A DNA stretch of 64,000 nucleotides, from assembly GCA_905178155.1 (NCBI GenBank), contig CAJINV010000005.1, positions 2,420,054-2,484,053 of the forward strand, given 5' to 3'. The position numbers and the translations under genes were made by a program. Below are positions 348 through 62,300 of this stretch, one piece after another. Origin of the DNA: Amoebophrya sp. A120 (taxonomy: Eukaryota; Protista; Dinoflagellata). Under the pieces are notes generated by a model. It saw only the letters and a program-made list of their open reading frames with translations. It ran no database searches and had not been told where the DNA came from. Position 1 is the stretch's first letter, and every line of letters begins with the position of its first letter.

Positions 348-3300
348 CCACCGAACAAAACCGCGGGCGCGATCGACTATTCCACCACGAAATTTGAGTG
401 CAAAAAGTGCCCGGAGGACAGACCCACAAGCCCGCCAAAGTCAAAATCCATCACGTTTTGTGCGAAGACTGGGAAGCAAACTTTGAAAATGGATGTCTCC
501 GTGAAGGACCCGAGCATTTTTGACGAACCGAAAACGGTCGAAGCGATTTTGGCGACTATGAAGGCTGACGGCGTTTTTGGGGAAAAGGACAGTTATGAGG
601 CGACGTTGGACGTGGTGAAGCCTCCTGCCATGGCGCTGCTGCAAAAAGACACCAGGACTGATGTTCTTGAAAAGCAGCTTGCGGAACAACAGACATCGAG
701 CGAGGAAATTGTAGACCGAGATAGGGATTTGCGAAGTACTTCTTATCCGTCGTATGACTCATCATCGCAGCCGGAAGGTGGCACGGCTGCACGGCCGGAA
801 GATGGAGAACAATTTTCGAATTATGCAGCAGCCGCAGCTTCCACCGAACGCGAACCTGACCTCGCGTCGCTTCTCGGCGCGGACTACGACCCAAACGACC
901 CGCTAGTCGCCGACCAGCTTCCCTCGCAATTTTTGCAAGTTAGCTCGAGTTCCACAACCTCCTCCGAAGCAAGGACGATTCTAACGCTGATTTTCACGGT
1001 GATAAACCAGCTTCCCCCCCTCGAGTACCCGGCAATTCAAGTCGCGTCTGGGTCAACTGGAAAGCCGTACCCCACGTTGCAGAAAGCGTTTCGCCTAATC
1101 TTCCCGCCGGAGGTTTATAATACCATTCAGATCAAGTTGCCGTTCGTCACTTGTGAGCCGGGTTTTGGGCAATCAGCGACGACGAACATGTGCGAAGTCT
1201 GCGCCCCCGGGTTTTTCGGCCCGGGCGGGTTGAGCCCGGGCTTGTGTCAAGTTTGCTCCGCACGGAAAACGAGCAACGCGGGCTCCGCGTTCTCGGATGC
1301 GGACTGCTACGGGGGGTGCGAACCGGGAAACGGGGTCAACTTTGCAACGAACAAATGCGAGCCTTGCAAACCGAACCTCTACTCCCCGGGTGGGAACGTG
1401 GAATGCAGCGAGTGCCCCCTCGGCATGACCAGTCCGGAAGGCGCGGGGTCGCTCCGGGACTGCACGGCGGCGTGCGAGCCCGGTTTCGGGGTCGCCGGCG
1501 CGACCTGCCAACTCTGCCCAAGTGGAACGTTCTCCGCGGGCGGGACGGATCCCTGCGAGCCCTGCCCCGCCGGATCCACGACGAACACGACGGGGTCCAC
1601 CAGCTCCGGGCAGTGCGGGCAATGCGGCCCGGAGTTCTGCAACTACCGAGGGCAGGCGACGGGGAACATTTGGAATTTGGACAACGGGGGCTGCCAGTGC
1701 AAATGCGAAACCGGGTACTCGGCCATGACGAACTGCGGCAGCTGCACCCAAGGGTACGAGAAGGATTCCACCGGTGCTTGCAGACCCTCCAGCGAGCGGT
1801 GCACGGTGAAAAGAAGTTGCAATAACCGCGGCGTCCCAATCAAACAGTGGAAAGATAGCACAGACACCCTCGAGCCCTGCCAGTGCATGTGCAAGGATAA
1901 CCGCTTGGACCCAACCACCAACTGCCTCTCCTGCAAAGCCTCGACCAACCTGAATCCGGAGGAAAACTGCGAGAACTGCATGGTGCCCCAACAGGACCGA
2001 TCGACCAACTGCAACACCTGCACCTCCGACGAGAAGCTCGACGCGTTCAAAAACTGCACGAAGTGCTTGCCCGGGGCGATCAACTGCACCGCGCCGAACC
2101 GGACTTTCGAAATGCTGTGGTTCTACTTGGGCGATCCGATGCACCGGAAGATGGAGTTCGAGATGGTGGAGCCGGTGGATTTCTCCTTGCAATTATCCCC
2201 CACGACGAAATCCTTCCAAACCAAAGCGCTCCAGACGTTGATCGACACCGCGGAACTGAAAGTCTTACCGAAGCCGTTTCCGAAAGTGAAGTTAAACAAC
2301 TACCGGTCCACCAAGACCTTCAAGTTCCTCGCGGGGAAATTACGGGATGAAAAGTTCAATTTCAGAATCACGGCCGGTTGGCCGGACGAGGTTGCGAACG
2401 AGACCAATGTGGACACGAAGGACGTGGCGATTTTGCGGCGAATATGAACTGCAAAAGTATCGTACTCGTATATAATTGCATCACAAATTTCCTCAGCATG
2501 AGAAATAAAATTTGTAATGCGAATTTACCTGAAGCTGAAGAAGAAGATTTGTAATGCATGATTGCAGTACGAGTGCGATACTTTTGCACAGGATAGCGGA
2601 AAATGGAACAAAATCGCTTCGCCGAAAATTCCCCCGTGCCGCTGGATTTTGCGGTAACCGCGACCAAGCTGTTGGAGTTCGACCTTTTGCCGTCCACTAC
2701 CGAGCCGGTTTCCTTCAAACTCCTGCCGCAATCGAAAAGATTGGAGTTGCCGAAAATCACGACGCCGTATGCGGACGAGAAGCTATATGCATCGCAAAAG
2801 TAAAAGTATCGCACTAGTTTGAAGAGTTGCAACACAAATTTTGTCAAGAACAAACATGCAATTTGTCATGCTAGTTTAGGTAGAAGGTTGGATTTGTCAT
2901 GCACGACTGCAATCACTACGGGCACTACGATACTTTTGCAGAGGATAAGCCAGGGCCGTTCAAAATCGCCCCGGAGGATTTGCCGAATCCGAAGTTCCGG
3001 ATCACGCCGATCCGGAAGTATTTCATCACGGAACTCTCCCAGCCGGTGAAGTTCGCGTTCAAAGTCACCGGCTCGACCCAAAAACTTTCCTTCAACGTGG
3101 AGAAGCAACCGCCGCAGTTTATCGATCAAAAAGCGGCCGAGGAGTGGAAGAGGGAGGAGGAGCGCAGGAAGAATCCCGTGATGCGAATCACGGACAAATT
3201 TCCCCAGCCGACCGGGTGCCGCATCGGGTACAACCGGATCGACTCGAAGAAGGACTGCGAGAAAGCGGCGGCGGCGATTCCAACCTGTAGACTGCCCGAA

Positions 3301-6300
3301 GTGGATCCGCGGATGAAGCCGAATCGGGATTCGAACCCGTTGAACGAAAAGTGCGAAACCAGGTGCAGTTCCGGCGGCGATATGGCGCAATCAAAGGAAT
3401 GCGAATTGCTTCCGCACATGAAGCCCAAATTCCCGTTTCACGTGGAGAACCGGCCGTTGATTAAACAGGGGTGCTACATCTCCGTGCAGAAGCAGGAGGT
3501 GGTCTGGAACGAGAACACAGTGGAAGAGGCGGCGCTGCCGGAGCGGGAGTACTACCACGTGTTGTGTCAGAAAGACGAGTTCTCCTACGGATTCCCCGAC
3601 CACCCGGCCGTGCAGTTCAGGATGCAGTTCGATCTGGACACGTTGTTTCACATCCCGGATGGGGTGAGTTGCAACATGCTTTTGGCGGTCTTGAAGTCGG
3701 ATGACTTCCTGGAGAAGTGGATCCCAACGGTGAAGGAGAATGCGGGCATCAACCAGTACGGGTCGGTGAACCTAGCCGGGTTGACGTGCCGGGGAACGGG
3801 CGTGGAGGGTTCCAGTGCGAAAGATGACGACAAAGCGGTCACGAAGTTCAACCAGAAAAGAAAGAAAGAATTGCTGAAGAAAGAAAAGGAGGATTTTGCG
3901 GATTCGAACGACTTTTCGCTGCTAGAAGTCGACAACGCGATGTTGAGCGGTGGTGATGATAGTGACGGTGAAGCTGAAGCGAAAAAGAAAGAAGTAGTTC
4001 CCGATTCAGAAAAATCAGATGTCGCAGCCCTGAACACGCGTCGCGGAGGACAAGAACTTCTGACCGGAAAAAGCACCAGCGAAGTTTTCGGCACCCCCGC
4101 GCCTCTCACCGTGGACCCGGATCTGGAGGACGAAGAGCCGATTTCCGTGCACTGGCAAGTCGTTGCGACGACGATCGACTTGTATGCAAGAAAAAAACTG
4201 TGTAAGTGTAAGTCTGTGATGCAAAGCATGTAACACTGTTACGCTTGTCATGCTAGGCAACCATGAAGTCCTATTTCATTTGTGTTTTCACTTACTAGCT
4301 GCGCATGACAGGCTTCGTCTGTCATGCAGAGCAGATTTGTCATGCCGTCACCCCAAGACACCTACACTAACACAGTTTTTTTGTTGGATAACTTGGACGT
4401 GGACGTGAAAGATGGTGAGGAGTTGAAGCTGGTGAAAAGAGTCGGTCTGGGCGTAAGAGAAAGTTTAGCAAACAGCAAAGCCATCACGGACCTCGGCGCG
4501 CAGCTCGCGGGGATCGCAGGTCCGATCCGAGCCCGGGTGATTTCGATCGACAAAGTGCCGTCCCCCTTTCCGAAGGAGGGTTTGCACGGCGACTACCCGG
4601 TGCCCGGTCTCCTCGGTGAGATAAAGCTCCGCGTGTACCACCCAGATTTGTGGATTTTGCGGAATAAACTTCTGATGTGGGTTTTTGGCCAAACTCTCAA
4701 ACCCTTTTTCGGGGTCCGGAACATGACCATGGTGCGGATCTCGGATCAGCCGGCGCCGAAAAACGAAACAATGTTCGAAGTACTGCAGCGAGAGGCGTCG
4801 ATTTTGCACCGGAAGCACAGACGGCACCGGAAGTGGGAAAGGAAAGTGTTGCACCAGGGGAAATTGTCGCCGATCGAGGTGTTTTTTCCGCGAAAGATGA
4901 CGAATCCGAGCATCAAGGAACAGAAAGAGGCGCTGGAGAAGCAATTGCAGCTGAGCAACGACTTTTACGGAGTCTACGACTTTGATGACAAGGAGTCCTT
5001 GCCTACTCTGGGTACTATGGAAGATGATCATCAAGAGCATAGAGTAGAACAGCCACAAGTTATTTCACCACCCCAAGCGACAGGTGGTCCTTTATTGCCA
5101 CTGGAAAACGACGATCTGTTGTTTGACGAAAGGCCACCGCACAACATACAGAACCAGCATCTGCAGCGGCTTACCCTCCTGCAAGTGCCGACGATCAAGA
5201 ACAAGAATTTTGAACTCGACATGGCGCAGCACATGCGGAACCACTTAACGCACTTCGGGATGGACTTCGACCACGATCATTTTCACTTCCCCGTTCCAAC
5301 CGAGCATCACGACATGTTTCTAGACCATAACGGCGATTTCGAGGTCCACACAGGAGCAACAGCGGCGGAGGCAAAAAGCAGCGGCGACGAGGAAAGATCT
5401 TCTCAAAATGAACACGGTGGCGCTTTTCTCCAAACCGATGCGAACGCCATGAGCCCCCTTCACGGCCACCTGGAAAATAAAAACGTCCCTGCGAAATCAA
5501 AAATTCTATCAGCTCGGAAAAACATAAACAAGACCACCGCCCGCCAGGTCTACCTGTCCGCCCTCCAGCTTCGCACGAAGGCGTCGAAACCGCTGAAAAA
5601 GCCGAAGACGGTGTACATCACGTATTTGGCGCAGGACGAGAGATTCCGGAACAATGTGCCGGAGATGGAGAAAACCAAAGAGATTATCATGAACTTGAAA
5701 CCCTCCACCGTCACTCCCTATGCGCGGAACTACTGCCAACAGCCGGACATGGTGACCCAACGGTTTTTTGAGCCCAAAATCTTGACGCCGAAGCAGGTGC
5801 ATGAATTGCTACACCCCTCTAGGCCGAAGGTGGTGAAGAAGAAGAAAAAGGAGCCTCCGAAGGATCTGACGAAGACGTGGAATATTCCGCCGAGAATGAT
5901 GAACGAGACGAAACCGAATCTAACCGCGCCAGTGAAACCAGAAGAGGCTGAGAAAGCGATCGCGCAGATGAATGTGACGGAAACGAGTACGACGACGGTG
6001 GAGCCGGAGTCGGAAGAGGAAGAGGAGGAAGAAGAGTCATCAACGGAGGAAACTGTTGATGAAGCGACCACGACCATGAACATCACCGGAGTGCACGACG
6101 AAGAAAAAGAGCAGAACATCACCACGCAACATACGGCATTCTCAACTGTTACATCCTCAACTGTTACATGGATTTGTGATGCAAGAACTGCAACAGTGAA
6201 ATAGGGTTCTTTGCGCTTCTTGAATGACAGAGTTGGCAAAGATTCTGAGCCTGTTGGGCTCGTCGAGAATTTGTCATGCGAAGCAGCTTGATCGTGTCGA

Positions 6301-9300
6301 TTCTAATTGCAATTTTGCATGAGAAAGCATGCAACACCAGTTGAGAATGTAACATTTGAGAACGCCATACAGCAAGTCTTGAACACGACAACCGGCGAGG
6401 TCGAGGATATGGATTGCAAAAATGTCTGGGTCTGGCAGACTGCAAGACTTGTGATGCACATTTTGCATGACCCACGAGGTCTGGAATGCAGAACCTAGCA
6501 TGAGAGATTCGGTGAGGTCTCCATCATGCCAATGCTGCATGAGAAACTCCCTCGCAGCTTGGTCGAAAGTGGACAGCTTTTGGCAGTCATGCAACACAGA
6601 TTTTTGCATGATTCTGATTTAGCATGACAAGTTCCACCTTTCCAGACCCAGACACTTTTGCATTTGATAGAGGAGGTGAAGGTGCAAAACGTGTACAACG
6701 AAACGACAGGGCAGATGGAGGAGGTATCCTGCGCAAAAGTATCGTACTCGTAGTAATCGCAATCATGCATTACAAACTTCCATCCCAAGGGAAAACAGCA
6801 TGACAAATTCCATTTATCATGCTGAGCGAATTTGTCATGCGATTTCTACTAGTACGATGCTTTTGCAATGCATAGGAAGTTCCAATCGCAAACGCAACGA
6901 ATTTAACGGTGACCCCGATCTCTCCCCCGGCGCCTGGTGTTGGGACGACGGCGGACGTCACAAACGCGCAACAGGCGATTGTGACGCAGTCCGGCGTGGC
7001 CTTGCTGTTCTGCAACCCGGGGCAGATATCAAATGCAACATAATGAAACCCTAGGTCTCAGAGAGCTAAACTTCTGATGCTGCATCTGGATGCTAAAAAC
7101 ATCTGTATTGCATGAGCAGCAAGAGGAATCAAATTTGGTTACGGGGAGAGGACATTTGTCATGCAGGATGCGCATCGATTTCGATGAGCGCTCAAAAAAA
7201 CTGTGATGCTAAGGCATACATCACAGACATCACGGATCATGGAAAATGTGCATGACAAACTTGTTCTCTCCCAGACTCAGACATGTTTGCAGTTCATAGC
7301 AGAAGGTGGTGGATGACCATTGCGAGGAGTGCCCGTACGGAACTTATTCGACGATTGGTGTGGAGTGTTTGGAGTGTCCGACCAACATGACCACCGTTGC
7401 GCCCTCCGCGACGTCTTTGGACTCCTGCGTCGGGAACTGTGAGCAGGGGTACGGCTGGACGGGCGCGATTTGTCGGCAGTGCGTGGACGCGGAGTACTCG
7501 GGCGCCGCGCCGGATGATCCCTGCCAAAAGTGCCCGGAGGGCATGATCGGCATCAACGCGACGTACGAGCGAATGATCGAGAACGTTTTCACCTTCCACA
7601 TGCACGATTTCCACCCGAAGCGGGTGATTGAGATGAACGCGACCGCGAATGTGGCGAACCAAAAGTTTGCTGTCAACGCGGATCAGAAGGAGAACGGGTT
7701 TGACTTAACGCCAAGATCGGAGAAAACCAAAAACATTGACTTCACCCCGAGAAGCGAGAAAAACCAAATCGATTTCACACCGCACGACGAGAAGTACGCG
7801 GTTCAAGCAGCTGCGAGGTCTATGGAAGTGTCAGAATCGAAATCAACAAAATCGAAATAATTTGTGATGCATAAAATCGATACCACTTGGAGCCTCAGTT
7901 TTCAAGTGGCGCATGACAAATTTCGGGAGCACCAAAATCCAGTCTGTCATGCTGTTTGGGCAAAGAAGACTGCTCCTGGCGTGCTGCTCCGGCAGCACAT
8001 CGCCTTCCCCTAATCAGGCTTGCAATCGGTCTCATTTGCCTACTCCCCAACACAGGCCTTACTTGCCCTACATTTTACGCATTGCAAATTTTTCGATTTT
8101 GTCGATTTCGATCCTGACACATCCATAAGGTCGGAGCCCGCGAAGTTCGACGTGTCTGGGAAACAACCCACTGCGTATCCTGAGTAAAAACATCCCCACA
8201 CCAGAGTCAAGATGGGGACTTTGCAACACAAACCTAGAACTTTTGGGGGTCACGCATCACAAGTTGCAGTCCGTAGTGTAGTGCAGGTTCGCAAAGCCAG
8301 CTGCATCAGAAATCCATCTGCTGATCCTATTTACAGCATTACAAATTCCAAAACACGACTAAAAATGGTTCTCCTGGCGATGCGCATTACAAATGTTCCC
8401 GTCATTGCAAATCTGCATGACAACTCTGGCGTGGGGACGTTTTTACTCAGGATACTGCGGGCGTGAAAATCACGGCGGACAGCCCCACCGCGGATCTGAA
8501 AATTCTCCCGAAAGACCAGCCGGAATCGAATGTGACCGTGTCTGCGAAGGAGGGAGAAACACAAATGAAGTTGCAACCAAAGAAACAACCGCAGTCGGAG
8601 TTCAGTGTAAACCCCGGGAGCCAAAAAACGAACCAATTCGATGTCCCCCTGGGGGAAAAGACGGAAAAGAAAGCGCAGTTCGGAGTTTTAACTCCGGACC
8701 AGACCAATCTGCTTTCCCGGCGGAAATTTCTTGCGAACCAAGCCGGGAAGTTTCCCTACATTCCGGGGATCGACTACATCCCGAGCAGCGACTTCCTCGA
8801 TGCGTGGTCGGCGAAGTGCAAGCCCAATTGCGCATTAGGACATTACTTCAACATCACCGTCGGGGCGTGTCAAGTTTGCCCCGTGAACCAGTACGGGTAC
8901 GGCGGGCCGATGCTGCAGTGCTTCCGCTGCCGTCCGCCGTTGGTGACCCGCGATCCGGCGGGCGGGGCTGGGAGTGATGAGAAGTGTTTTCCCCCCTGTA
9001 AAGCGGGGGAACGCTGGGGCCCGGAGGATAAGAACGATCCGGCGAGCAAGTTCGTCTGCGCGCCGTGCGAGTACGGGACCTACGCAACGGGTTCCCACTG
9101 GTCCGGCGCGCCCGGCTTGGGCGACAAGTGGCTTTCGCACCCGTGGCAGTGCGAGAAGTGCTCAGACAAAAAGCCGATCACGTCCACGAGCGGTGCAGTC
9201 TCCGACTTGCAGTGCGCGGTGCCGCCAATCACGAAAATGGCGATCAAAATCTCCGTATCAACTGCAAATATCGACGAAATCTGGGTCGTGTGGGAGGTTG

Positions 9301-12300
9301 CCAGGCCTGCTCTGCTTTTCATCTGCCATGAAGCATGTCTCGAAGTGCCTCTGTGGTGCATCAGGGCGAAAAGTGAATCCTCCTGACGCCTGCCATGCAG
9401 ATAAAAGTTAGCCTGCTCGCGAAATTATACGCAACAGATAGTAGGTCAGAAAACAAAAACACTATTGTCATGCTCCTCGGCTGCGTATTGCATTGGGCGT
9501 ATGTATCATTACATTTACAACTTTCTCGCATTACAGCTTTTACTGTCCAGACCCATATCGGTATTCGCAATGCATAACCCGCTGCGGGAGAATCGGTGCA
9601 AGCGGACACGTTTGACGACCCTGTAGTTTTGAAGGGAATGCAAGACTCGATTTCCGACTGGCTGCAAGCCTCCGACGTGCAGCTCTCCGTGGCCGCGAAT
9701 GAGGAGGGGACAACGGACCAAACGGTTTCGCAAATCGACTTGCTGCAACTCGCCACTGGGAGGAAGATCAAAAAGAAACTGCGCAAAGCGGCCACGGACC
9801 GGGAGATTCTGCTCGCGGTGGAGGCCACGGGGACGCCGCCGGGCGGAGTCACCGCGTCGGTTGACGATTTGTCGCAGACGATGCAGTCCAATCCGGATCT
9901 AGCAACTCTGGACCTGAACACGGAGGGGGCTGTGACGCACTGCGAGCCCGGGTACGGGATTTTCCCGGAGAACGCAACGTCGCCACTCTGCAGCATCTGC
10001 CCGGTCGGGTACTACGGACTGGGCGGGGAGAACCCACCGTGTATCGCCTGTCAGGAAGGGTTCAGTTCGGCGGCGACCAGCACAAACATCACCGCCTGCT
10101 TCCCCATCTGCGACAGTGGATACGGCGTGCACCCCGCGACGGGGGAGTGTGCGATTTGTCTGCCGGGGTTTTATGGGCCGGGGGGAGCGTCGGAACCCTG
10201 CCGGGAGTGCCCGCCCGGGAAGACGTCGAAGGTCGGAAGTCAGTACGAACAGGACTGTAAGCGGGAGTGCGAACTGGGCCGGTTCTGGTCGCAGGACAAG
10301 GAGTGCGCGGCCTGTCCGGTGCATACCTACAACGACGGGACCGACCCGATGGCGACCACGTGCAAGCAGTGTCCGATGGGGACGCTGACCGACTTTTCCG
10401 GCTCGGTTTCGAAACGAGATTGCGGGAAGTGCAACGATTTATTGCAGCTCTGCAACAACCGCGGGTTGTCGGTCACCGGCAACACCTGGGACGACGCGCA
10501 CAACGGCTGTCAGTGTGTCTGCGAGGAGGGGTACGACCACTGTACCCACTGCGCCACCTGCTTACCGGACTTCGAGAAAGACCGTTTCGGCAACTGCCGT
10601 CCGGCCTCCGACAAATGCCACCCGATCGAGGATTGCGCGAACCGAGGTAGTATCAACTGTAAAAATGTCTGGGTCTGGAAGGTCACAACTTGTAATGCTG
10701 TCTGTGGATTCTAAAAAAATTTGTATTGCATGACCAGCAAGAGGGGTCGGGTTTGTCCTACGCGGAGAGGGCATTTCGCATGCGGTAGAGGTATCACAAA
10801 GCCTCCTAAAAATCTGTGGTGCTACGGCATGTATTACAGACATAACGGCTCATGGAAAATATGCATGACAAATCTAGAAATCTTCCAGACCCAGACATTT
10901 TTGCAGTTGATAGGTAGGTTGTTGGAGGATTTCCGAGACGCAGAGTCCGGCTATTGCCGCTGCGCGTGCTACAACCCGAACGTGTTCGACCGGAAAACGG
11001 GGTGCAAGGAATGCGTGGATGGGCACAAGCTCGATCCGGAGCAGAATTGCGTCGTTTGCAAACTCGGCGAGATTTGGGACCCGGAAACCGCGTGCGAAAC
11101 TTGCTCGGACCCGAACGCCGATCCGCAGAAGGAGTGTCTGGAGTGTAAAGAGAACTACTTCCGGGACGAGGAGATCACGGACGGGAAGTGTATCCCGACT
11201 CCCACGACCACGACCACCCCGATCTGTTACCCGGGGCACGAACCGGTGAAGATCGATTTGATGTCGAAGAACCAGACCGCCGGCTTGAAGGCGGACGACG
11301 AAAACGACGAGTCTGATGCGGACGAAAAATCCATGACAGCTGGGGTCTTAGATCCGACCACCGCCAACGCGCCGCCGGGCGCCCCCGGGTCACGGTTCGA
11401 GTGCAAGCCCTGCCCGCTTGGGACGTACAGCCGCGTCGGCTTGCCGTGCGTCCAGTGCCCCACGGACATGACGACGAGAACGGTTGGTTCCGTCGAATAC
11501 GAAGAGTGCGTCGGGAACTGCAGTGTCGGTTTCGGTTGGATGGGGGCGAGTTGTAAGAAGTGCGGCGCCCACGAGTTCGCTTTGTTCCCCGACAAGCCCT
11601 GCGACCAGTGCCCGGCGGGGTACCGGGTTCTGCCGAAGTGGCGCGACATTTTCGCGGAAATCACGCAGAAGGAACGGCACGCGCTGTTGTTTGAGGCGGC
11701 GCGGAAGGACACGGACGAGTTTTTGCACGAACTTGCGATCATGATCGTGAAGCTGCAGGATCATGGGGGGCAGAACAACCCGAACGGGGAAGAAGATAAC
11801 ACTTTCCCGCCTCTGAGCGTGAATAACCCGGCGGAACTGGCACAAGAGTTGATGGAATTCGCGACGGAGGAAGGGAAGAAGATGCTGGAAATGTTGCGTG
11901 AAAAAGCAAAGATGTTCAAGTCGGACAAAAATGCGAATTCGCAAGCCGCTCGGCTGATGCGGAAACTAGCAAGCGAGGTGGAAGCCGTCTCGAAGAACGG
12001 TGCAAACGACTTTATTCCGGATCAGGAAGAATCTGTTTCTGTTCTCTCACGACACAAGAGAAACGGCACCGCGAACATGACTCTTTCTCCGGATTCGACG
12101 AACTTGAAAACGAACGTGGCACCGGATCCCACCACAGGCGTGGTAAATGCAACGACGTCCGTGAAAGCGGGTTTCATGCGGTACTTCAAAGTGAACACAA
12201 CCGCGAATACTTCCGCCCACGCCATGGATTTCGATTTGCCGCCGAAATTCCGTGTGGTGCCCGCCGGGAATGGGGATCCGGTGGTGTTGCTCCCGCCAGA

Positions 12301-48300: not shown

Positions 48301-51300
48301 CCGGGTGAAAAAGTTGACGTTTGGAAACTTGTGGAAAGAGGAAAAAGCGAAGGAAAAGGCGAAAGAGCAGCAAGTGAAAACCAAGAAGAAGAACCTTCCC
48401 CCTGCACTGGACCACAAAGCGGGTGGAAAAAGTGGCACAGTGGAAGCTTTGGCGAAGGAAAAGAAAAGCCTGCCGGCGCCTTTGGAGAAGGCCAAGGAGA
48501 AACAAGAGGAAGTGCAACTAGCGCCGGGAGCGGAGGGTGTGCACTACAAGAAAACTTTTCCGGTGTCTTTGGCAGAGGAAACTCGACAGGACACCACAGG
48601 TTTTAGACCGAGTTTGAGTTTTCACTTGAACAGTCCGGAAAGCGGTGAGGATGCGGCGTTTTCATCCCCTGGTGACAAAAATGTTGAGCAAGAAGACCCC
48701 ACGGCCGAACAAGAGCTTTCTCTGCTGCAAAGTTCCAAGCTCCAAGCCACCGGCGTCCTTTTCCAGCCGGCAACACTGTTCAAAGCCAGAGCGCGCATGC
48801 TGTGCGAACGGCAGCAGGAACAAGGACAACCGGCGGAACAAAGTTTGTTGGCCGTCTATTCATCCTCGGGCGGTAGAGCCACTAGTTCCTACGAAAAGCA
48901 GTACGCGATAGCCCCGTTGCCTATGAAAGATAAATCCTTCTGCCCGCAGAACCTGCAGAGGATCGCGCTGTTCAGCACCGAAGCAAATGAATTCTCAAAA
49001 TCCACCACCTGTTTCCCCACCTGCCACGCCGGCCAGCGCTGGAACGGCAAGCAGTGCGAGGCGTGTCCGGCCGATAGCTTCATGACGGAATTGCACTGGT
49101 GGCGAAAGCGGGAGGAACCAGTGACCAACTGGGCGGGATATAACGAGCACACTTGCGAAAAGTGCCCGAGAAATAGAAGGTTCACGATAGGAGGAGTTCC
49201 TGCTGCTGCGCTTGGAGGACAGCAATTCCTATCAGCATCACCGTCCAGGACCGGGAAAACGAGCAAGAATCACTGCGTCGCGCCCCCACTCACAACCATC
49301 CAGATCCGAATACCAAATGGCGAGCAATCGTTTCTGACGCTGTTGCAAGAGAATTTAGACGAGGAGTATTTCCGGCTGAGTAGCGACAAGAAAAAAACCG
49401 CGGTTTTAGAGGTGGTTTCCGAGGAAAACAAGGGATACATTTTCCAGCAGTTTTTCCAAAAAGCACTGAAATCCACAAAGGGATTATCCAAGCTTATCGA
49501 GCTCCAAGACTTCAGCATTGACGACGGGAAGACGCCACAGCAGGTGGGAAACGCGAAGTCTCTGACGTTTTTGACCAGTTCGTTACCCGAGGAACTAACC
49601 AGCCAGCACGAACCACAGGTGACGATCAACGTGAGGATACGAACGACCGAGCCAGTGGAGCTGATGTCCAAGCGGGAAGTGAGAAGCTTAAGAGGGTTGA
49701 AAGCGCTCTTAGCCGAAAAGTTGTTCCAACCGCAATTCGCAACCTTCGCCGACGTCGCCGCGGCCGATACGGATAACAACCTCTCCAGCAGCTGCGCGCC
49801 GGGGTACGGAAAAATTGAAATACCGGATGAAAGGAATGATGGAAAAAGTGAGCTGTCCTTTCTCTGCGAACAAATCTGCGACGAGGGTTCCTTCTCTCCC
49901 GGTGGTGATCACGCGGTGTGCACTGCCTGCCCGGATCACACGAGCAGCTTCCCCGCTTCTGGTAATTGTTTACCGACCTGCTCAGCCGGCTTTGGCCTGT
50001 CGGCGGCAGCGCCGAGGAGTACTTCTAGCGAGTCGTACGACAAGTTTATTTCATCTGGTGAAAGACATAATTCTGAAACTGCCTCTTCCCAAAATATCGG
50101 AACTACAAGTTCTACCTCCTCCCGCACCTGTGTCTACTGCCCCAAAAACCACTTCGGCCCCGGCAGACTGTCCGAGTGCCAAGAGTGCCCGGCGAGTCGC
50201 CCCATTTCCATGCCGGGGAGCTTATCCAAGAAAAAAACATTGTAGGTGTAACTTTTTTGGAGGAACAGCTGCATTACAAATTTGTCTGGCATGACAGCAA
50301 AAACCTGTCATGCGCAGATAGTACGCGAAAACGCCCTTTAATGGACCCTGCGATGCATGCCAAGCATGACAGACGCAATCATCCTGCATATTGAGCATCA
50401 CAAATTTACTTACACTAACAGCGTTTTTTTCTTGGATAGAGCTCGTCAGTGGAGCACTGTCGGGTGAGTTGCAAGGACGATGAGAGTATCAAATGCAAAA
50501 GTGTCTGGGTCTGGAAACTTGTAATGCTGCGCTGGGAATAGTGAATGCTCTGTAATGCCCAGGCAAGCATGAGAAGTATCTGCGCTTCTTTGTGTTACGT
50601 TTTTCGCATGACAAACTGCGTTTTTGCATGACAGGCACAAGGGTCTCTTCTTGGACACGCATCACAAACTTTTTGGTCATGCCAGACAAGCATGACAAAT
50701 CCCAAAATCTAGCGGACCCAGACATTTTTGCATTTGATAGAGAGGTGGGTGCCCAGGATTGGGAGATGTGTTTTGGAGGACGAAATGGAGGAGCAGGACT
50801 TGGCTCTGACGGAGGAAAGCATGTTGACGCATGGGGACGAGCAGTTGCTATCAACAGATGGAATAAATTCACCAGCATCTTCGCCTCTTTGGCCCCATGA
50901 CGTCGTAGGGGACACAGTTCTAGGCGAGGGCAGCACGAGTGCTGCAGCTCCTCGGGAAGATTCATCATCATCTTCATCTTCTCGTCTTGGTGGGCTTTTC
51001 CCATGGAAAACCGCAAATACACAAGCCGCACGGGAAGGGGAAGACGAAAAAGAAAAAGCCAAAAACGATATTGCCCCACAGCACCTGCTCCTTCCCGTCG
51101 CTGCTGATCCGAAGAAGAAAAGAGAAAAAGAAAAACAAGCCATTCTCGCCGAGGTTGGTCGAGCTGCGGAGCAAAGCGAGCAAGCGCAAAGAACGCATGA
51201 AGGACCAGCAGGTGGACCACAACAAGACGAGCACTTCCTTTATTCCCCGGAGGAGCTAGCTGCCGTGAAGAAGAGAGCGAGACAGGAACTGACGCTCGTG

Positions 51301-52862: not shown

Positions 52863-52896
52863 TTTGATTTTTTCTACAGCTGTAGAAAAAATCAAA
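52863..52896. repeat. Perfect 34-bp palindrome
   Basis: tttgattttttctacag|ctgtagaaaaaatcaaa; a related hairpin lies at ~52707-52741. Confidence 0.85.
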
Positions 52897-53139
52897 CGGG
52901 ACTCGTCCGAAACCGAGAGAAGCGAGAAAATGGCAAGAACTCGAGAAGTTCTCACTTTTTCTCGAAGTTCTCGCTTTTTCTCGAAAGTCTTCTCGTCCCG
53001 CCCATTCGAGGCCAGCGGCCGAAAACCTCCAAAATACGGTAGAAAAAATCAAACACCTCCGGGGAAAATCAAAAGACCTCCACCCAGAAGCGGAAAAGCC
53101 GAATACACGCGCACGCGCGAAGCGATGCGCGAAGCCCCA

Positions 53140-55480
53140 GCACCGCGAAGCGCCAGACGGCAATGGGGGCGCGCCCCATGTGTGGGCAACGCTGAGAACG
53201 AAGCGGCCTCGTCTTGCAAGCGGACAAAGTTCGTTTTCCTTTCAGGCCAACGGGCCCGCCACCTACGCAACCAGGCGGGGGCGGGCGCGCTGGGTGTGCA
53301 AAACAAAGCGGACCTCGCGGCCGAGAAAAGAGAAATAACAAAGCCGCGCGCGCAGCGCGCGGTGGGCGCGGGTAACGCGGCGAGGCAACCACGCCGCGCG
53401 CGCAGCGCGCGGAGAAAATTTTTCCGACAAGCGGGAAGCGCAGCAAAGCGAGGGAGCGGGCGCATTGGGTGCAGGGTAGCCAACCCTACACACTTCGCGG
53501 CCAAGAAGAAGGCAGAGGCAGCAAGGCCGCGCGCGCAGCGCGCGGAGGAAATTTTCCAAGCGTGCGACAGACGAAGGCGGGGGCGCGCCCCATGTGTGGG
53601 GAACGCTAAGAAGCAACCTCGCCGCGCGCGCAGCGCGCGGGGAAAATTTTTGCGAAAAGCAGGCCACGCAACCAACCAAGCGGAAGCGCGCGGCATTGGG
53701 CGCAGGCGAACCGAGCCAGCCGACATACTTCGCGGCCAACCAAGAAGACAGCAGAGGTAGCAATGCCGCGCTCGCAGCGCGCGGAGCAAATTTTTCAAGC
53801 GACAGATGGAGATGGGGGCGCGCCCCATGCGTGGGGAATTCTGAGAAGCGGAGAAAATTTTCCAAAGGGCAGACGGGGGTGGGGGCGCGCCACATGTGCG
53901 GGGAACGTTGGGCAGCAACCTCGCGCGCGCGGAGAAAATTTTTCTAGCGGCAGGCGAAGCCGGGGGCGCGCCCCATTTGTGGGGAACGCTAAGGAGCAAC
54001 CTCGCCGCGCGCGGAACGCGCGGAGAGAATTTCTCAGGCGGCAGACGGAGGTGGGTGCGCGCCCCATGTGTGGGGGCAGCTGGCAGGAAACCTCGCCGCG
54101 CGCGCAGCGCGCGGAGAAAATTTTTCCGACATGACAAGCGGGCCACGCGGCCAGGCGGAGCCGCGCATTGTGTGCGGAAGAACCGCAGCCAAATACTCGG
54201 CGGCCAAAGAGAAGGCAGCAAGGCCGCGCGCGCAGCGCGCGGAGAAAATTTTTCAAGCGGCAGAAGGGGGTGGGGGCGCGCCCCATGTGTGGGGGGCGCT
54301 GAGAACCAACCTCGCCGCGCGCGCAATGTATGGGGAGAATTTTTCCGACAAGCGGGTCACGCAGCCAAGCGGGGGCGCGCGGCATTGGGTGTAGACGAAC
54401 CGAGCCAACATACTTCGCGGCCAAGAAGAAGGCAAAGGGAGCAAAGCCGCGAGCGCAGCGCGCGGAGCAAATTTTTCAAGTCCGCGACAGACGGAGATGC
54501 GGGCGCGCCCCATGTGCGGGGGATTCTGAAAAGCAACCTCGCTGCGCGCGCAGCGCGCGGAGAAAATTTTTCAAAGGGCCGACGGGGGTGGGGGCGCGCC
54601 ACATGTGTGGGGAATGCCGAGAAGCAACCGCGCCGCGCGCGCAGCGCGCGGAGAAAAATTTTGCAAGCGGCAAACGAAGGCGCGGGCGCGCCCCATGTGT
54701 GGGGGGCCCTAAGAAGCAACCTCGCCGCGCGCGCAGCGCGCGGGGGAAATTTTTTCGAAAAGCAGGCCACGCAACCAAGCGGACGCGCGCGGCTTTGGGT
54801 GCAGACGATCCGAGCCGACATACTTCGCGGCCAAGAAGACGGCAACGGTAGCAATGCCGCGCTCGCAACGCGCGGAGCAAATTTTTCAAGGGGCAGATGG
54901 AGATGGGGGCGCCCCCCATGCGTGGGCAATGCTGAGAAGCAACCTCGCTGCGCGCGCAGCGCGCGGAGGAAATTTCCAAAGGGCAGACGGGGGTGGGGGC
55001 GCGCCACATGTGCTGGGAACGTTTGGAAGCAACCTCGCCGCGCGAGCAGCGCGCGGAGAGAATTTTTCAAGCGACAGGCGAAGGTGGGGGGCGCGCCCCA
55101 TGTGTAGGGAACGCGAAGAAGCAATCTCGCCGCGCGCGCAGCGCGCGGAGAAAATTTTCCAAGCGGCAGACGGAGGTAGGTGCGCGCCCCATGTGTGGGG
55201 AGCGCTGACAAGACACCTCGCTGCGCGCGCAGCGCGCGGAGAAAATTTTTGCGACTGACAAGCGGGCCACGCGGCCAGGCGGGGCCGCGCATTGTGTGCA
55301 GAAGAACCGCACCCACATACTCGGCGGCCAAGACGAAGGCCGAGGCAGGAAACTCGCGCGCGCAGCACGCGGAGAAAATTTTTCAAGCGACAGACGGAGA
55401 TTGGGGCGCGCCCCATGTGCAGAGACGCTGAGAAACAACCTCGCCGCGCGCGCAGCGCGCGCGCGGAGAAAATTTTTCGC
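53140..55480. repeat. GC-rich tandem satellite of ~91-bp and ~132-bp units with a ~1.1-kb higher-order repeat
   Basis: About 22 copies of cgcgcgcagcgcgcggagaaaattttt; short units carry ggggcgcgccccatgtgtgggg, long units carry catacttcgcggccaagaag. Confidence 0.92.
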
Positions 55481-56363
55481 GCATTCTTCTCGATTTTTCT
55501 CAAAGCACCCGACTGGTTTTTTCTACAGTGGGAGCCCGGTTTGATTTTTTCTAGATGCTTTGTGATTTTTTCTACCGTATTTTTTTTTTCTCGACATGTA
55601 ATCGGTATGAAAAGCAAAAAATACAATTTTGGTTTGATCCACTTCGTGTCTGTGAGTTTTGCTTATTAATGCAGCTTTTCTATGCCAAGGCCAAGCGATT
55701 CTCGGACTCGGTCTGCTATTTGCTTGTGATGTGCACAATCTCGGTGATTCCACGCTTGTGAAGCTGAATACAACGCAATGATCCACAAAAAACAGATCTT
55801 CGATCTTAGTGGAGGTTGATAGGCATTATTGAAGAGCCAAGAGTAGAAGAAGCAACCGCTATGACAAGTATCTACTTCAGGACCTCAATTTATTCTATGT
55901 CAACGTAAAACTAAAAGCAATCTTATTCTGTATGTACTACCATCGAGAAAATGAAGACAACATTCACAACCTCCTGTAAGATGTCATGATATTCAATCAA
56001 TATTTTATTTGACGCAGCGGCTCCTACAGCGATGTAGCTCCTACGGCGCGCGAAGTTCCGGGATCTTACACGAAGATCTGCCGACGTGTGATCTCGGAGC
56101 TCCTATTTGATCCAATTTTGCTGGTTACGATCGAATTGAATATTGATTGTGCCGCGCTCGTTCCCGCGAGACGTGGAACTTCCCGCAATCTGTGGAACAT
56201 GTAGTTGCACGCCTGATTATATTTCAATAGCCGTCTAAGGACTTCTACTTCCCAATTATCCGGAAGTGTCTATAGATCGTCGGACCGTATAGCACTCACT
56301 CAACTCTCACACTAGCACAATTCTTTATGTGAACTCTGTTCGTCGACGTTGTTTATTTCAAGT

Positions 56364-59300
56364 ATGACCTCGAAGAACGTGAGCAAGGCGAAGTCCAAAG
56401 CCCCCAGTGGGGGCGGCAAAAATGCGGGCAGTGCTGGCAATGGTACCGCCACCAAGGTCGTGCGCCCAAAGGAAATAAAAGTGCCACCAGCTGTAGTCGT
56501 GCCAACAGAAGTGACGCCTGGCGGGGTTCTTGTGACTGAGGACACAAATGCGGTCACCACAGGCCGGCTCACCGACCTGCCAGAAGTTACCAGGCCGGCG
56601 GTGTTGGACACCATAGAACAGAGGTAATTCTATCTATTTTGTCGCGTTTGGTAGGAATGAGCGAGATCCTGACCCCGATGAATTGTTTCATGGAAGCGAT
56701 ATTTCTATTGGCTCCATGATTTTTTGAGGTCCTTCCTTCCTATCGTGCAGAGATAGATATCTTCAGATGCGGTTTATAAGATGATTTTTGCATGCTCAAG
56801 AAACGGAACAACTACCCCTGGTCCACAGGTACACCACCGGCAACCAAGCCTACACCTTTGTCAGTGACGACCTCCTGGTTGCGGTCTCACCAAAACTGCA
56901 CACTTTAACGAAACATGCCACGGCTTCAAATTCAACATCGAGTTCTAATCCCGGCATTGATACCCCCGCACAGCAGCAGCTCCCCCAGCAGCCCGACCCG
57001 CATGCATTCGACCAAGAACACCTGGATTTTTACTCGCGCTACTCCTCTGGCGACCAGCTCCCGGCGAGGTTTTTCCCGCGTCGCATGCGAGACGAGTACA
57101 AAGCGTCAGTTTTTTCAGCACGGTCGAGGGCTGGTTCGAGGGAATCGTTTCCGGCACAGCTGCATCCGGCTAAATCACCCACGCCGGCCCTGTCTTCGAC
57201 ACCAGGCGGCAATAAGAGGCACAAGAACCTCCAGCTGCAAAGTATGCGCACTGTCGAGCCTCACTTGTTCGAGATGCCGGAGAAGGCTTTTCGGGATTTA
57301 CTGTTCTTGAAACAGAATCAAAGCCTTGTTTTCCTAGGGGAAGAGACAAGAACCGCGTTCGACATGTCGTTGGAGTTCCTGTGCTACAAAAGCAGCAGCA
57401 GCAGCAGCAGCAGTAGTTCTTCATCTTCGTCGACGTCTACCTGTGTAGCAACATCAAGGGAGCCCGGAACAGAATCTGATAGTACGCACGCGCAGATAGA
57501 AGATAGAATACGCAGCGCGATGCTCCTCTTAGAAACCTTTGGTCACAGCGGTGGCGCACAAAGCAGTGCAAATTCTGTGCCTCACTTTGGAAAGTTTCTG
57601 CAATTGTACTTCGGCGCGGACACTGTGGGGCGACCGGTGATTTTAGGAGCGACGATACGACAATTTTTGCTGGAGAGCAAGCAGGTCCTGGAGCAGAGCG
57701 GCGAGGCGATTCTGCAGTGCTTTTTGCAGTTGGAGAACGCCGGGTTATTACAGGGTTTGCTCGACTACAGGAATGAAGACGGTACAGCTCCTGTCGAGGG
57801 GCAAGAGCAAGGAGCTGATTTGTTTTCAGACACCGAGACCGCTGTGCATAGCCGGCTGCCAAGCACGCAGCGTCTCATCCGGACGTTTTTGGACCATGCG
57901 GCTGCTACAGAAGAAGCTGGGGTCGCTGTTGCGAGAAATAGTCCGGAGACCAATATTAAAGGACTGGGAAACCACGGCGCTCCTGTCCCGATAGTACAGG
58001 CCGAAATGTCCCCACGAGGCCCAAAAATCAGCAGCCTGGGAAGAGACTACGAGGAGTCCTCACGTGAACGGCAGGGCCGACTACAGGCTTTGGAAGCCAT
58101 TTTTGGCAGAGCGTCGCCTTTCGACGGAGCAGAAGATGATAGGTCAGCGACAACCCGATCCTCATCGTTCGAAGCCACCTGCGACGCCCTGGAGGTGTGC
58201 GGGTTTTCGGAAGAGAAGGTGGAAAACCTTTTTCAAACCGTCGCGGGCATCCGATGTATCGCAATTGCTGCTACAGCTACAGAGGGAACTACCGCCGTCG
58301 ATGCGGAACAGAAGAGGACTCTATTGAGACTTGCCAACGCTCTTCTCGGATTCTTGGATAGCACTAGCAGCAGCAGCAGTACAACCAGTTTTTACCTCGG
58401 CGGAGCGACCGCGGCTGTTGTGCACTCTAGCCAAGAAGATTATGCGGACGTCGCCACACCGATCCATGCTCCAAAGACGAAAACACAAAAACAGGCTGAG
58501 CAAACGGCGGATTTGGTCGACAAGAACGAGTCGCCGCTGCTGGTAGAAACCAAAATCGTGCCAATGCTAGAAGCGAAGCAGCACCAGAACGGCGGGATCA
58601 CCGAAACCACGCCCAGTTCGGAACTCGCGACTTTAGCGCAGAACCTTTACCAGAATCTGTTTTCTTTCCTGGTTCGCGCTTTGAATGTCTGTTTAAAGAC
58701 GCAACAGCGAAGAAAGATAAACGGTGCTTCTAGTGCCACGGCTCAACGAGAAGCGACATCAAACCCTACACGACGTCGTGGTAAGTTTCTTCTAAACCCG
58801 ACAGACACCCCGAACTTTGAGGCCTTCGTCGCAAAAAACTTTTTGTCTACCGACTCTGATGTTGCGGATCTAGACGCGGTTTCGAGCTGCATCGGCTTGT
58901 TAGACGGTGGTTTCAGAATGGTTCGACAACCACGACCATCCTCCACGATGAAAATGGCATCTGCAGGAACTCCACGGAAAAATAAATCGCAGTCCCTGGA
59001 CGCTCTGCTTCAGAACTACGTGAACGACAAATTTGCGCATTTTCTCTCGTCCATTCTGTTTCAAAAGGAGTACGAAGCGGTTGCGGAGGAACTTGGGAAT
59101 GACGTGGTGCAGGAACTGTATGCGCATTGCGACAAAAAGGACCATCCGCTGGTTTTGGGGAAAACGCTCGCGAGTCTGGAAACTGCGATCTTCCCCGAGT
59201 TGAAAATCGGTTTAAAGACGTCCTCTGAAAATAATGCTGCTCCCAATGAAAATGCGTCACCGAATACTAAAACGGAAAGCGCACGACCGTCAAGCTCCTC

Positions 59301-62300
59301 CTCGAAGCAGGCCAAGAGCAAGGCGAAAAAATCTTCAAATAAAGTTGCGGGCGTAGGAGCTGCATCTACTACGGAAGCAAGTGGTGCGACCACCTCTGCG
59401 GCGACAATGTCCTTGAGTGAACGCCTCCGGAAGAAAATTTCCAATTTGAAACACGACTACATTTCCATCCGGGCAGGAGAAATCTTCGCGAAGAACAAAA
59501 ATAAAGCCAATGTCGGGTTGGAGCTAGGCGTCAGGCATTTTGGAGGAGAAGAGCCGACCTGGTATGATGTTGCCGAGTTTGAAACTACCTTGGAGCGAGC
59601 GGAAAATAAGACCACCGCCTGGATGAATATCGGTGCAGAAGATATGGATCTGTCAGGATTGAAATCGTCAAAGTTGAAATTATTTGTGATGCATAAAATG
59701 CAAGGCATGAAGTGCTTGTCTTGCCGGGATGGCAAGTGAGGCCGACCGTCAGCCTGTTTAGGGTTTGAAATAGACATGCTGAAGTAGCATGACAAAAGCA
59801 GTCTCCTGTGCCCAAACAGCATGACAAACTGGATTCCGGTGCTCGAAAAATTTGTCATGCGCCGCTTGATAAGTGGGCTTGCGACTGGTATCGGTTTCAT
59901 GCATGACAAATTATTTCAACTTTGTCGATTTCAAACCTGACGCTTCCATAGAAGACACCAGCAGTAGTGCCGGTCCTCTTTTCCTCTCACTTTGTGACAA
60001 CAGCGAGAATCTCGTTGTCCGCTTCATGTGCCGCGACCCCACGAAGCCCACGACCTCGTCGTCCCAAGCGGAGAACGGTCGTGCCGCGGTGGCACAAAGC
60101 AAGCCCTTTTGTTCATCCTTTGTGCTGCACACGGACACAATGGACACGATGGCGATGCTGAAGCAGTTACTCTCCAGGTCTAAAGTGCGGTTCGTCCTTG
60201 GCGTTGAAGCTGGAACCGTTTCTACTACTGCGTCTTCGGAGGCTAGTACAACAAGGACGGATTTTTTACCAAGCTTCAACTTCGATCGCGAGGCGTTTGA
60301 CGCGCAACTACGCAAATTCGATTTATACTCCGTCGCCGGGATCCGGAAGCGCGGGTATGCGCACTGTTTATCACATTCTGAGTTTCTGAAGCGATACAAA
60401 GCGATAGCAGCTCCATCATCTCCAGGAGGGTCGACTACATCGAGTGCAGCAAAAATAGTAGACGCTGTTGTTTCCGGTCTGAACGAGGCAATTGGCGGCC
60501 AATTGCTCGTGTCGGATAAAGATAGAAGAAGCGAACTCCTCATCCAATGCGGGAAATCCAAAGTCTTCTTCAAAGAAGCCACTGCAAGTCTCCTTGAGAA
60601 GAAGAAAGTGATCCTCTCCAGCCAGTTCGCGACCAGGATACAGAAAGTCTGGCGCGGAAAAATAATCCGGAAGGAGCTGAAAGCCATGCCGATTTTGCTT
60701 CGGAAGATCCAGGACTTCCCAAAGAGGTTGAAGCTTGATTACAACGAATCGGAAGAGCTGACCGCGGTATCCTACCAAAACTTCTCCGAAGTGGAGAAGC
60801 ACGTCAATCAATGTGCGGAACTACTGGACTTGGTGCACGAGTCGACCTTTTGTATTGATGCGGGTCAAGATAATGAACAGCAACAGCAGGCAGCACCAGC
60901 AGAAGCACCAGCAGACCAAGGGCTGGTGCAGCTGCGTCGTCGAGAATTAGGTAATATACAACTGAATCCGGTGAAGACCCTGGAGCAGTGCCGCCAGAGA
61001 CTCCAGAACGTCGGCAATTTGTTTCAGCACGTCGAGCAGATGTGCGAAACGGAGGACCGGACCATGGAGATTTTCAGCATGCTGCAACGGTGTGCGGCTT
61101 TAGGTATGGGCCACTGTTTTGCCGTCCAGCAGCTCCAAGCGAGACACGACAATTTGGTCGCGCAGAGCAGCAGAGTTTTGCAGCTGAAGCGGTTGACGAA
61201 GAGGTGTCAGAGGTTTTTGGCGAAGACAGAAGGGCTGTTTGAACCTGTAGTGGTACAACAACTACCGGGTGGTGGAGGTAGTACAAATACATCTTCAGTG
61301 GAGATTTCCAATCTCGACCGTGAAGCCTTCAAACTGATGCGGAAAAGCGAGTTGAGCCAGGAGCTCAACGCCTCGGCCCTGCTTCTATCCGAGGAGGAAG
61401 ACAATAATTCTCCTAGCGGCGGAGGTGTTTCGACTGTTTTTACACCAAGAGCCACGAGAGCTCCAAACGACGGCGGACAGCACATCAGTAACCAAGACCA
61501 GGAGACGCGCTTCCAAAAATGCGTCGAGGAGGTTTTGCAGGCGTTTTTGACCGATTCTCATCGATTGTTAAACGAAATAGCGGTTTTCCAGCGGGAAGTT
61601 GAAATTATCGGAGAGCGCGACAGCGCCGTTGCGACCTGGACGAAACTCCTGACTTTCGACCCGTTTGAGGCCTTCTGTGACCTGACCTACACCGCGGTGC
61701 CGAAAGTGAAAAGTAGACACGCGGAAGTGAAGGAAAAAATGCTTCTTCAGCAACAGCTAGATGGAAAGAACAGTAGCGAAAATATTAAAAAAACCGTACA
61801 ACGCCTCAACACGCTCGAGCTGGAGTTCAACGCGAGAAGCAAGGCCTCGTCCAGTAGTAGATTCGGCAACTACAGCACCAGAACCGACAGCGTTTTCAGT
61901 TCGGGGGCGCCGAGCAGGAATTTGTCAACGGCGCAAACGACATCAAAACGTGGTCAAGAAATGATGGAGGATAGTGCTGCTGATCAAGAGATGGCAGTGG
62001 CGATCGATCTTTCCTCCGAAGCGCCACAGTTCCAGAATTTGTCGACAGCAGTTCCTCCGGGAGGCACCGGCCAGCTGACCACAGGAAACGACGACGAAGA
62101 CTACCCGATTAATATGCTTCAGCCCCAGCAGCTCGAAATCACGTCCTTCCTCCCATCCCCAACAAATAACTTTTTGAGCGACACGCTTCTCTCCCTGCTG
62201 CGCCTAGCCCCGAAGGGCACGCTTGACTCCGCGGGATGGCGGCGGGTTGGGAGCCTTGCTGAAGACCATAGCTTTAGCTTTATTCCGGCAGAAAGCTGCA

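Follow-up and report, generated by a model that had tools for sequence, protein, structure and literature searches.

A single motif with DNA-helix spacing is shared by introner families with unrelated terminal repeats in Amoebophrya sp. A120

A 64,000-nt stretch of the genome of the dinoflagellate Amoebophrya sp. A120 (GenBank assembly GCA_905178155.1, contig CAJINV010000005.1, positions 2,420,054 to 2,484,053; hereafter, the window, in whose coordinates positions are given unless a locus is named) contains 50 insertions with terminal inverted repeats (TIRs) that interrupt two genes. A preliminary description of the window had noticed that ten families of these elements, dissimilar in TIR and length, share one internal 8-mer, TGT[CGA]ATGC or its reverse complement GCAT[GCT]ACA, and had proposed that its copies are either arrayed sites for a single protein common to all (a transposase or a splicing factor) or repeated pairing modules. 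We find that the shared 8-mer is real, that its copies are confined almost entirely to the elements, that they form same-strand pairs 31–33 bp apart, and that they are placed in phase with the DNA helix; the same pattern is found in families that are absent from the window. The motif is very probably an array of sites for a protein that binds double-stranded DNA, and we favor, with moderate confidence, the reading that the array serves mobilization, that is, that it binds one shared mobilizing protein, probably either an integrase-like transposase or a DNA-binding partner of such a transposase.

The exact 8-mer is present in 156 copies in the window (77 in one orientation and 79 in the other; with T at the variable place the counts are 0 and 1). 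All but five of these copies are located within the 50 elements (151 in 12,303 bp, 12.3/kb), compared with 2 in exons (44,167 bp; 0.045/kb), 3 in an insert nested in one element (2,173 bp), and 0 in intergenic DNA (5,357 bp). Every one of the ten families exceeds the mean of its dinucleotide shuffles at least 20-fold (e.g., 87 copies vs 1.99 in family A and 8 vs 0.15 in family H); two or more exact copies are present in 39 of the 50 elements and a single copy in the other 11. An iterated matrix widens the motif to ~11 bp, A-[TC]-[TC]-T-G-T-[CGA]-[AT]-T-G-C (AYYTGTVWTGC), with T almost never found at the variable place; this matrix identifies 279 sites in the 50 elements (22.7/kb vs 0.4/kb in exons at the same threshold). 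The sites keep fixed places within each family. Eight of the ten example positions given in the preliminary description are exact; the copy placed at 59686 is at 59685, and the one at 6586 is a near match (AGTCATGC). The polarity that it reported (TGT... inside the left TIR and ...ACA inside the right TIR) holds for 23 of the 50 elements, 20 of them in family A; in family B the sites point outward, and in family G all are on one strand.

The count of ten families was obtained again when the elements were clustered by BLAST with the motif masked, although membership depends on the method: A joins J, F joins I, and C splits in three (the family letters are those of this analysis and may differ from those used previously). 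In local alignments of motif-masked elements, the remaining family pairs have median scores of 16–24, compared with a shuffled median of 18; single pairs reach 33, compared with a null maximum of 29. The motif copies could be what is left, without function, of a single element or tandem unit that was ancestral to all of the families, a reading to which the tip signature and some tip variants common to several families, as well as the detectable relationships of A with J and of F with I, lend some weight. However, the spacers that separate paired sites are unrelated from one family to another and the masked families mostly score like shuffles while the motif is intact; also, within families, shared variants are four times rarer in the motif core than in the spacers (vide infra). 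We consider a relic highly improbable.

The preliminary description had also proposed to examine the spacing of the sites. Same-strand pairs 31–33 bp apart, with spacers that are unrelated across families, are found in eight of the ten families. In ten family representatives we count 14 such pairs vs 1.87 expected, and none of 5000 randomizations matches this at any 3-bp window; counted by family, seven of the ten representatives have a pair (P = 0.013). A joint fit of period and site centre to 115 pairs in both orientations gives a period of 10.4 bp (mean cosine 0.38; 0 of 1000 nulls subjected to the same grid search), with the site centre 2.5 bp 5′ of the middle of the 8-mer; at 11.0 bp the mean cosine is 0.00. 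The opposite-strand pairs alone fit the same 10.4-bp lattice (54 pairs, P = 0.0025), and random choices of family representatives give a period of 10.3–10.5 bp in 191 of 200 draws. The pitch of B-DNA is 10.4–10.5 bp, and that of an RNA duplex is ~11 bp. Neither the dinucleotides in the spacers of 340 elements (the window and metagenome sets combined) nor the lengths of the elements have a clear 10.4-bp peak; generic nucleosome-type periodicity of WW (A or T) dinucleotides was not seen.

For replication, we collected metagenome contigs by a scan for the family A TIR (at least 183 stretches, from which 180 loci were used, 0.5 Mb including overlaps); this sample is biased toward family A and toward loci with an intact A TIR, and the 77 metagenome loci among the matches listed are all on JACKZZ01 contigs. 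A detector that is blind to the motif, and that on the window finds 43 of the 50 elements and calls nothing else, identified 296 unique elements in these loci, of which the 6 above 420 nt were dropped. An exact copy is present in 283 of the remaining 290 (898 copies in total). Eight clusters (13 elements) in the metagenome loci are absent from the window; 12 of the 13 elements carry the 8-mer, whose exact copies number 23 in 2,143 bp, compared with 0.18 expected. With the parameters fixed at their window values, these eight clusters have a phase score of 0.354 (48 pairs, P = 0.001) and five 31–33-bp pairs vs 0.81 expected (P = 0.001). In the window and metagenome together, a 31–33-bp pair is present in 290 of 340 elements and in 14 of 18 clusters. 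A family of 109–113 nt (locus L059, 2473–2581; locus L024, 1032–1144; and three others) consists of little beyond two TIRs and one site pair, and is thus a minimal form of the element. In viral contigs, the family A TIR has no match; the paired-motif pattern has 28 loci there, none within a TAT...ATA element, and these were taken as chance.

The identity of the molecule that is read, DNA or RNA, can be judged from the strands. On the sense strand of the pre-mRNA, 117 sites are in the forward and 110 in the reverse orientation, and the same family is present in both orientations in one gene (in the long gene that fills most of the window, 11 copies of family A have one orientation and 12 the other). 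A splicing factor that reads the motif on single-stranded RNA might be expected given that the elements must leave the transcript, and the reverse form of the motif contains UGCAUG, an RBFOX-type word. However, the sense strand carries the motif and its reverse complement at equal frequency, the same family works either way round, and a single-strand reader would not impose one 10.4-bp lattice on both orientations. Pairing modules that extend an RNA or single-stranded DNA stem fare still worse. In predicted folds, 1540 of 3860 motif bases (40%) do pair with another motif copy, but the variable base is complementary in 44 of 119 mirror-placed outer pairs (37%) vs 43% by chance; in addition, all of the sites are on one strand, and cannot pair, in every family G element (16 of 16) and in every element of cluster 10 (5 of 5; a new 110-nt family), and the fold of family G closes on the TIR with no pairing between sites possible. 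The lack of covariation and the single-strand families thus lead us to reject pairing modules, which are scarcely credible, and make the single-strand RNA reader very unlikely. A protein that binds double-stranded DNA accounts at once for polarity, degeneracy, and phase. Of the readings proposed in the preliminary description, the array of sites for one shared protein is therefore the one that survives, narrowed by the 10.4-bp phase and the strand symmetry to a binder of double-stranded DNA. A single motif with DNA-helix grammar across unrelated families implies one system with one DNA-binding protein and not a mixture of superfamilies.

The ends of the elements suggest how such a protein might be used. 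All 50 elements have TA termini (mostly TAT...ATA), and they are 146–406 nt in length, with one at 2,467 nt owing to the nested insert; 43 were located by a scan for TA-ended inverted repeats and 7 more were placed by eye from motif copies outside those, and one border was shifted by 1 base after the initial scan. A 5-bp target duplication flanks the elements, perfect in 36 of 50, with 4/5 matches in 11 and 3/5 matches in 3; a 6-bp duplication is present in none of the 50. The targets are 58% GC. A Tc1/mariner origin with a TA target was considered and rejected; the TA is part of the element, and the duplicated stretch is 5 bp long. In the cluster-weighted tip profile, T, A, and T are invariant (partly through the detection rule), and A is present at 71–87% at positions 11–15; the common tip is TAT, ~7 freer bases, and an A run, with families D and H lacking the A run. 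The TIR arms are ~70–100% complementary across most of the first 30 positions, and complementarity fades past ~31–34 bp; positions 16–30 differ by family and are conserved inside each family. At tip positions 4, 5, and 7, agreement between the left and right arms of an element is poor (40–62%), and identical tip variants are found in both family A and family B, as though ends had been swapped or were recognized loosely; one tip variant (TATGCATTGC) carries a variant site at position 3. Near copies, up to 96% identical, are found elsewhere. The elements have the traits of miniature inverted-repeat transposable elements, that is, they are short, have TIRs as well as target-site duplications (TSDs), occur in many copies, and have no coding capacity.

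We propose that these elements likely operate as integrase-type elements do, by cutting or copying. One shared protein would allow all of the families to be cross-mobilized. Its protomers would bind the site pairs on one face of the helix, starting 32–34 or 40–44 bp inside an end (by a post hoc count, 96 and 317, respectively, of 511 outermost inward sites lie at these distances). The bound array would bend or wrap the 110–400-bp element so that both tips are united, and the united tips would undergo integrase-type insertion with a 5-bp stagger. Elements with good arrays would be amplified more, so the motif would be kept even as drift alters the spacers and the portion of the TIR that is specific to each family. 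Removal from RNA would rest on the TIR stem, which could be formed in either orientation, and not on the motif.

The pattern of conservation bears on when selection acts. In 20 subfamilies of at least four copies (191 copies), variants shared by several copies, which mark sub-lineages, are four times rarer per column in the motif core than in the spacers (0.044 vs 0.175); singleton rates are 2.03% in the core vs 3.81% in the spacers. The singleton core/spacer ratio climbs from 0.53 to about 0.7 with subfamily size, and in the largest subfamily (n = 34) the rates are 1.80% and 1.72% (ratio 1.05). Exonic and non-exonic copies are alike (core/spacer 0.54 vs 0.49; n = 116 vs 12). The preliminary description had proposed that decay at the neutral rate in old, spliced copies would argue against a splicing role. 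In copies whose TSD has a mismatch or whose TIR has a private change, the gain is +0.81 percentage points in the core (95% interval 0.10–1.54), +0.58 in the spacers (−0.01–1.15), and +0.35 at the four strictest motif positions (−0.33–1.07); core changes are gained as fast as spacer changes, with intervals that are wide and a comparison that is underpowered. The constraint is mostly between lineages and leans toward selection in lines that were copied. An apparent loss of the motif in copies with decayed TIRs (core/spacer 0.71–0.83, 19 copies) was rejected as an artefact, mostly of truncations, insertions, and wrong references; in several copies with a damaged TIR the core is almost intact.

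Sites are also found outside the elements. Approximately 20 motif clusters are located outside recognizable elements, and some of these clusters are decayed elements. We predicted, blind to the motif, 109 TIR-free GT/GC-AG introns without similarity to elements; these are ab initio predictions, some surely wrong. A universal intron signal was rejected, as 94 of the 109 have no site. The density of sites in the TIR-free introns is 0.9/kb, compared with 0.72/kb in other non-coding DNA and 17.6/kb in elements; the TIR-free motif clusters are not phased (0.077, P = 0.28). Decay of old introners (intron-generating elements) can account for the sites in TIR-free introns. Several TIR-free GT-AG introns in an adaptin gene (AP-4 epsilon-like by eye; locus L058, 456–2575) have one or two strong sites each, as does a short one in a Rab gene (locus L059, 2315–2428). 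At locus L044, 1732–1870, a family B-like array has kept its 5-bp duplication, lost its right TIR, and has GT...AG ends; it is possibly an introner turned canonical intron.

Several observations weigh against mobilization. Transposase and integrase families match none of 134 open reading frames of at least 215 aa near related elements (in the 0.5 Mb of overlapping loci); four metagenome elements of 457–1104 nt also have no obvious long coding frame. In the available part of their account, Farhat et al. found no transposase in A120 (PMC7789003). Strong sites closer than 32 bp to an end number 5 of several hundred, whereas in Tn7 and IS21 the first site is inside the TIR. The family-specific TIR positions 16–30 are just as compatible with end readers that differ by family and a host factor common to all. 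A phase relative to the element ends, scored without regard to orientation and seen in the window, failed in the new families (P = 0.63). The clusters may share a remote ancestor that is undetectable, so they may not be strictly independent. Singleton changes are still depleted in the core (pooled ratio 0.5–0.7), most at the invariant G (0.62%). Finally, 15 of the 109 TIR-free introns carry a total of 24 sites (4.6 expected), and inward or 31-bp site pairs are present in several short introns of the adaptin gene and in the one of the Rab gene.

The last two of these points are also what might be expected if the array were bound after insertion by a host or domesticated DNA-binding or chromatin protein that either marks the element, in whichever orientation it lies, for co-transcriptional splicing without U1 or packages or silences it. 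All of the DNA-level evidence (pairs, phase, and strand symmetry) fits such a protein equally, the nested non-TIR insert holds three sites, GT/GC-AG is present at the exact cut in just 5 of 50 elements, and in A120, according to the portion of the source available, neither U1 nor a transposase was detected (PMC7789003). However, exonic and non-exonic copies have the same constraint and the same motif load (1.00 vs 0.97, P = 0.65; 12–19 non-exonic copies), the frame is still restored at three exonic elements that have one strong site each, and copies capable of GT-AG splicing are not visibly relaxed; also, the unphased TIR-free clusters, at a density near that of other non-coding DNA, are as expected of decay. 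We regard a host protein acting after insertion as an unlikely but serious alternative to mobilization. A combined reading, in which introns would be defined on DNA, that is, a host or domesticated protein would bind the array and, as transcription proceeds, direct the U1-less spliceosome to thousands of non-canonical introns in both orientations, possibly doubling as a cross-family mobilization factor, with old introns keeping their pairs once the TIRs are lost, seems to us improbable.

The reading frames of the two genes suggest that the elements are introns. Gene 1 (231–51657, forward strand) is a 12,337-codon frame after excision of 49 elements with 5 extra nt each; its predicted product of 12,337 aa has ephrin-receptor-like and TNFR-like Cys repeats and a CAP domain. 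With 3, 4, 6, or 7 nt excised the frame has 259–274 stops, and with 2 nt it has 3 stops. Excision of each element plus 5 nt gives a single gene 1 frame, and the elements therefore behave as introns of a live gene; splicing of the elements from RNA is suggested by this reading frame. Gene 2 (56785–64000, forward strand), with a myosin-head-like start, continues past the window end, and its frame is restored by excising the element at 59643 plus 5 nt. In RNA with the same species label, the read sets either leave the gene 1 exons uncovered or have nothing on gene 2, and the contigs are short exon pieces; no read or contig among these spans an element site. The duplication starts and ends with G in 9 of the 50 window elements and in 18 of 167 exonic elements in the metagenome loci; this gives G|TAT...ATA|G, and GT-AG splicing would then be possible, adding one codon. 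A segment at 24451–24627 is AT-rich, free of stops and of the motif, and has GT...AG ends; it may be a frame-preserving canonical intron tallied as exon.

The individual elements are as follows, with the number of copies of the exact 8-mer unless sites are specified. In family A, six copies are present at 36656–36907 (252 nt), 46008–46259 (252 nt), and 50487–50739 (253 nt); five at 25195–25446 (252 nt), 38358–38609 (252 nt), and 46848–47114 (267 nt); four at 16432–16694 (263 nt), 19430–19686 (257 nt), 33458–33719 (262 nt), 36347–36609 (263 nt), 38894–39149 (256 nt), 39531–39795 (265 nt), 41016–41277 (262 nt), and 42785–43047 (263 nt); three at 7027–7298 (272 nt, left TIR damaged), 23318–23579 (262 nt), 32291–32554 (264 nt), 37274–37533 (260 nt), and 41327–41591 (265 nt); two at 6408–6669 (262 nt, with three variant sites in addition), 10651–10912 (262 nt, 92% identical to the oppositely oriented element at 41016), and 34546–34798 (253 nt); and one at 44100–44364 (265 nt). 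Its decayed relative, family J, is represented at 9256–9576 (321 nt; two copies, a weak array).

The short family B elements have three copies at 2443–2595 (153 nt) and 6725–6874 (150 nt), two at 2786–2947 (162 nt; at 2864 and 2895, 31 bp apart) and 12305–12454 (150 nt), and one at 17124–17283 (160 nt), 24203–24348 (146 nt, decayed), 29817–29967 (151 nt), and 34871–35026 (156 nt). Family C has five copies at 4183–4390 (208 nt; 4215, 4246, 4303, 4320, and 4338) and at 50223–50438 (216 nt), four at 43135–43343 (209 nt), and one at 38071–38297 (227 nt) and 44424–44635 (212 nt). Family D is found at 6132–6369 (238 nt) and 33138–33381 (244 nt), with two copies each, and at 28806–29044 (239 nt), with one; family E is found at 31204–31418 (215 nt, three copies) and 43757–43976 (220 nt, two copies). 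Each family F element has one exact copy: 18944–19349 (406 nt; two 32-bp pairs of variant sites), 26310–26630 (321 nt), and 46331–46651 (321 nt; sites at 46386, 46418, 46470, and 46502, that is, spacings of 32, 52, and 32 bp). The family I element (12496–12801, 306 nt) has four exact copies in two 31–33-bp pairs. Family H is represented at 7821–8127 (307 nt; copies at 7863, 7911, and 7945) and, in gene 2, at 59643–59950 (308 nt; sites at 59685, 59717, 59787, 59819, 59853, and 59901). Family G is represented at 8176–8454 (279 nt), with six sites that are all on the minus strand at spacings of 31, 49, 33, 48, and 31 bp, and at 20404–22870, where the element, with three copies in its own part, is split by the nested insert.

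This 2.17-kb insert (~20451–22618) has an exact 20-bp flanking duplication, a poly-T start, two diverged direct repeats ~1,085 bp apart, and three motif sites; it has no relative in the metagenome loci and looks like a target-primed retro-insertion. Between the two genes, a GC-rich array at 53031–55583 consists of ~91-bp units in higher-order repeats and has no motif sites; its boundaries are marked by an imperfect inverted repeat of 38 bp (TACGGTAGAAAAAATCA core), with more copies at 52725 and 52880.

The motif provides a precise bait for finding the binding protein, and its signature can be used to search for the autonomous element and to recognize decayed introners among the canonical introns.

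The comparisons that follow draw on the available portions of the cited papers. The repeated introns of A120 number ~30,000 and fall into ~1,950 families, with no U1 and no transposase detected, and the signature of its introners is TAT, ~7 less-conserved nt, and at least 3 A, with a direct repeat of 3–5 nt (PMC7789003). The window elements have the same inverted repeat of TAT, freer bases, and an A run, a short direct repeat, and many families in coding sequence; their lengths near 150, 209, 252–262, 279, 305, and 320 nt recur in the A120 family table (PMC12130899). The elements match the published introners and are thus already known. In the portions available, these accounts (PMC7789003 and PMC12130899) cover the inverted and direct repeats and do not mention a shared internal motif, its spacing, or its phase; likewise, in the open literature, including PMC11282704 and PMC12005148, we found neither a shared internal motif nor a phase, although figures S19–S25 of Farhat et al. 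and the consensus sequences of Gozashti may show them.

The element ends point to the integrase clan by analogy. A120 introner family 38 (~810 bp) has integrase-related coding sequence and is filed as Ginger, ‘5-bp TSD, TA/TA Termini’ (PMC12130899); judged by that annotation, it has the same end signature and duplication length as the window elements, but it is longer and has coding remnants. IS3EU/GingerRoot elements have TA..TA termini like those in the window, the TNT..AYA termini of IS481EU are compatible with the window tips, and TDD-4/5 have 5-bp duplications as do the window elements (PMC10045372, PMC6839031, PMC2836005). However, GingerRoot differs in its 6-bp duplications and 100–150-bp TIRs (its GC-rich targets are alike), and Ginger2/Tdd shares the 4–5-bp TSD but has TGTNR termini, where the window elements have TAT. 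The window elements are therefore outside strict membership of both GingerRoot (TSD and TIR length) and Ginger2 (termini).

Spaced internal sites are familiar from the subterminal repeats of CACTA elements (bound by TnpA) and of hAT elements. The TnsB transposase of Tn7 also has spaced internal sites, with left-end sites 42 and 31 bp apart (PMC9308760), IS21 combines spaced transposase sites with a 5-bp duplication (PMC10122671), and transposases of the integrase clan read arrays of weak sites by their spacing (PMC9308760, PMC10122671); in the Emigrant MITE, subterminal motifs are bound cooperatively by a transposase (PMC1636448). Like the end arrays of Tn7, IS21, and Mu, the window arrays have several degenerate sites at defined spacing and asymmetric ends. 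Unlike those of Tn7 and IS21, they start at least 32 bp inside the tip, with the first site outside the terminal repeat; they span the whole element in either polarity, they are common to families with unrelated TIR bodies, and their binding is predicted. Subterminal arrays as such are known; what appears to be new is one phased array across intron-forming families with unrelated TIRs in a genome without detected U1.

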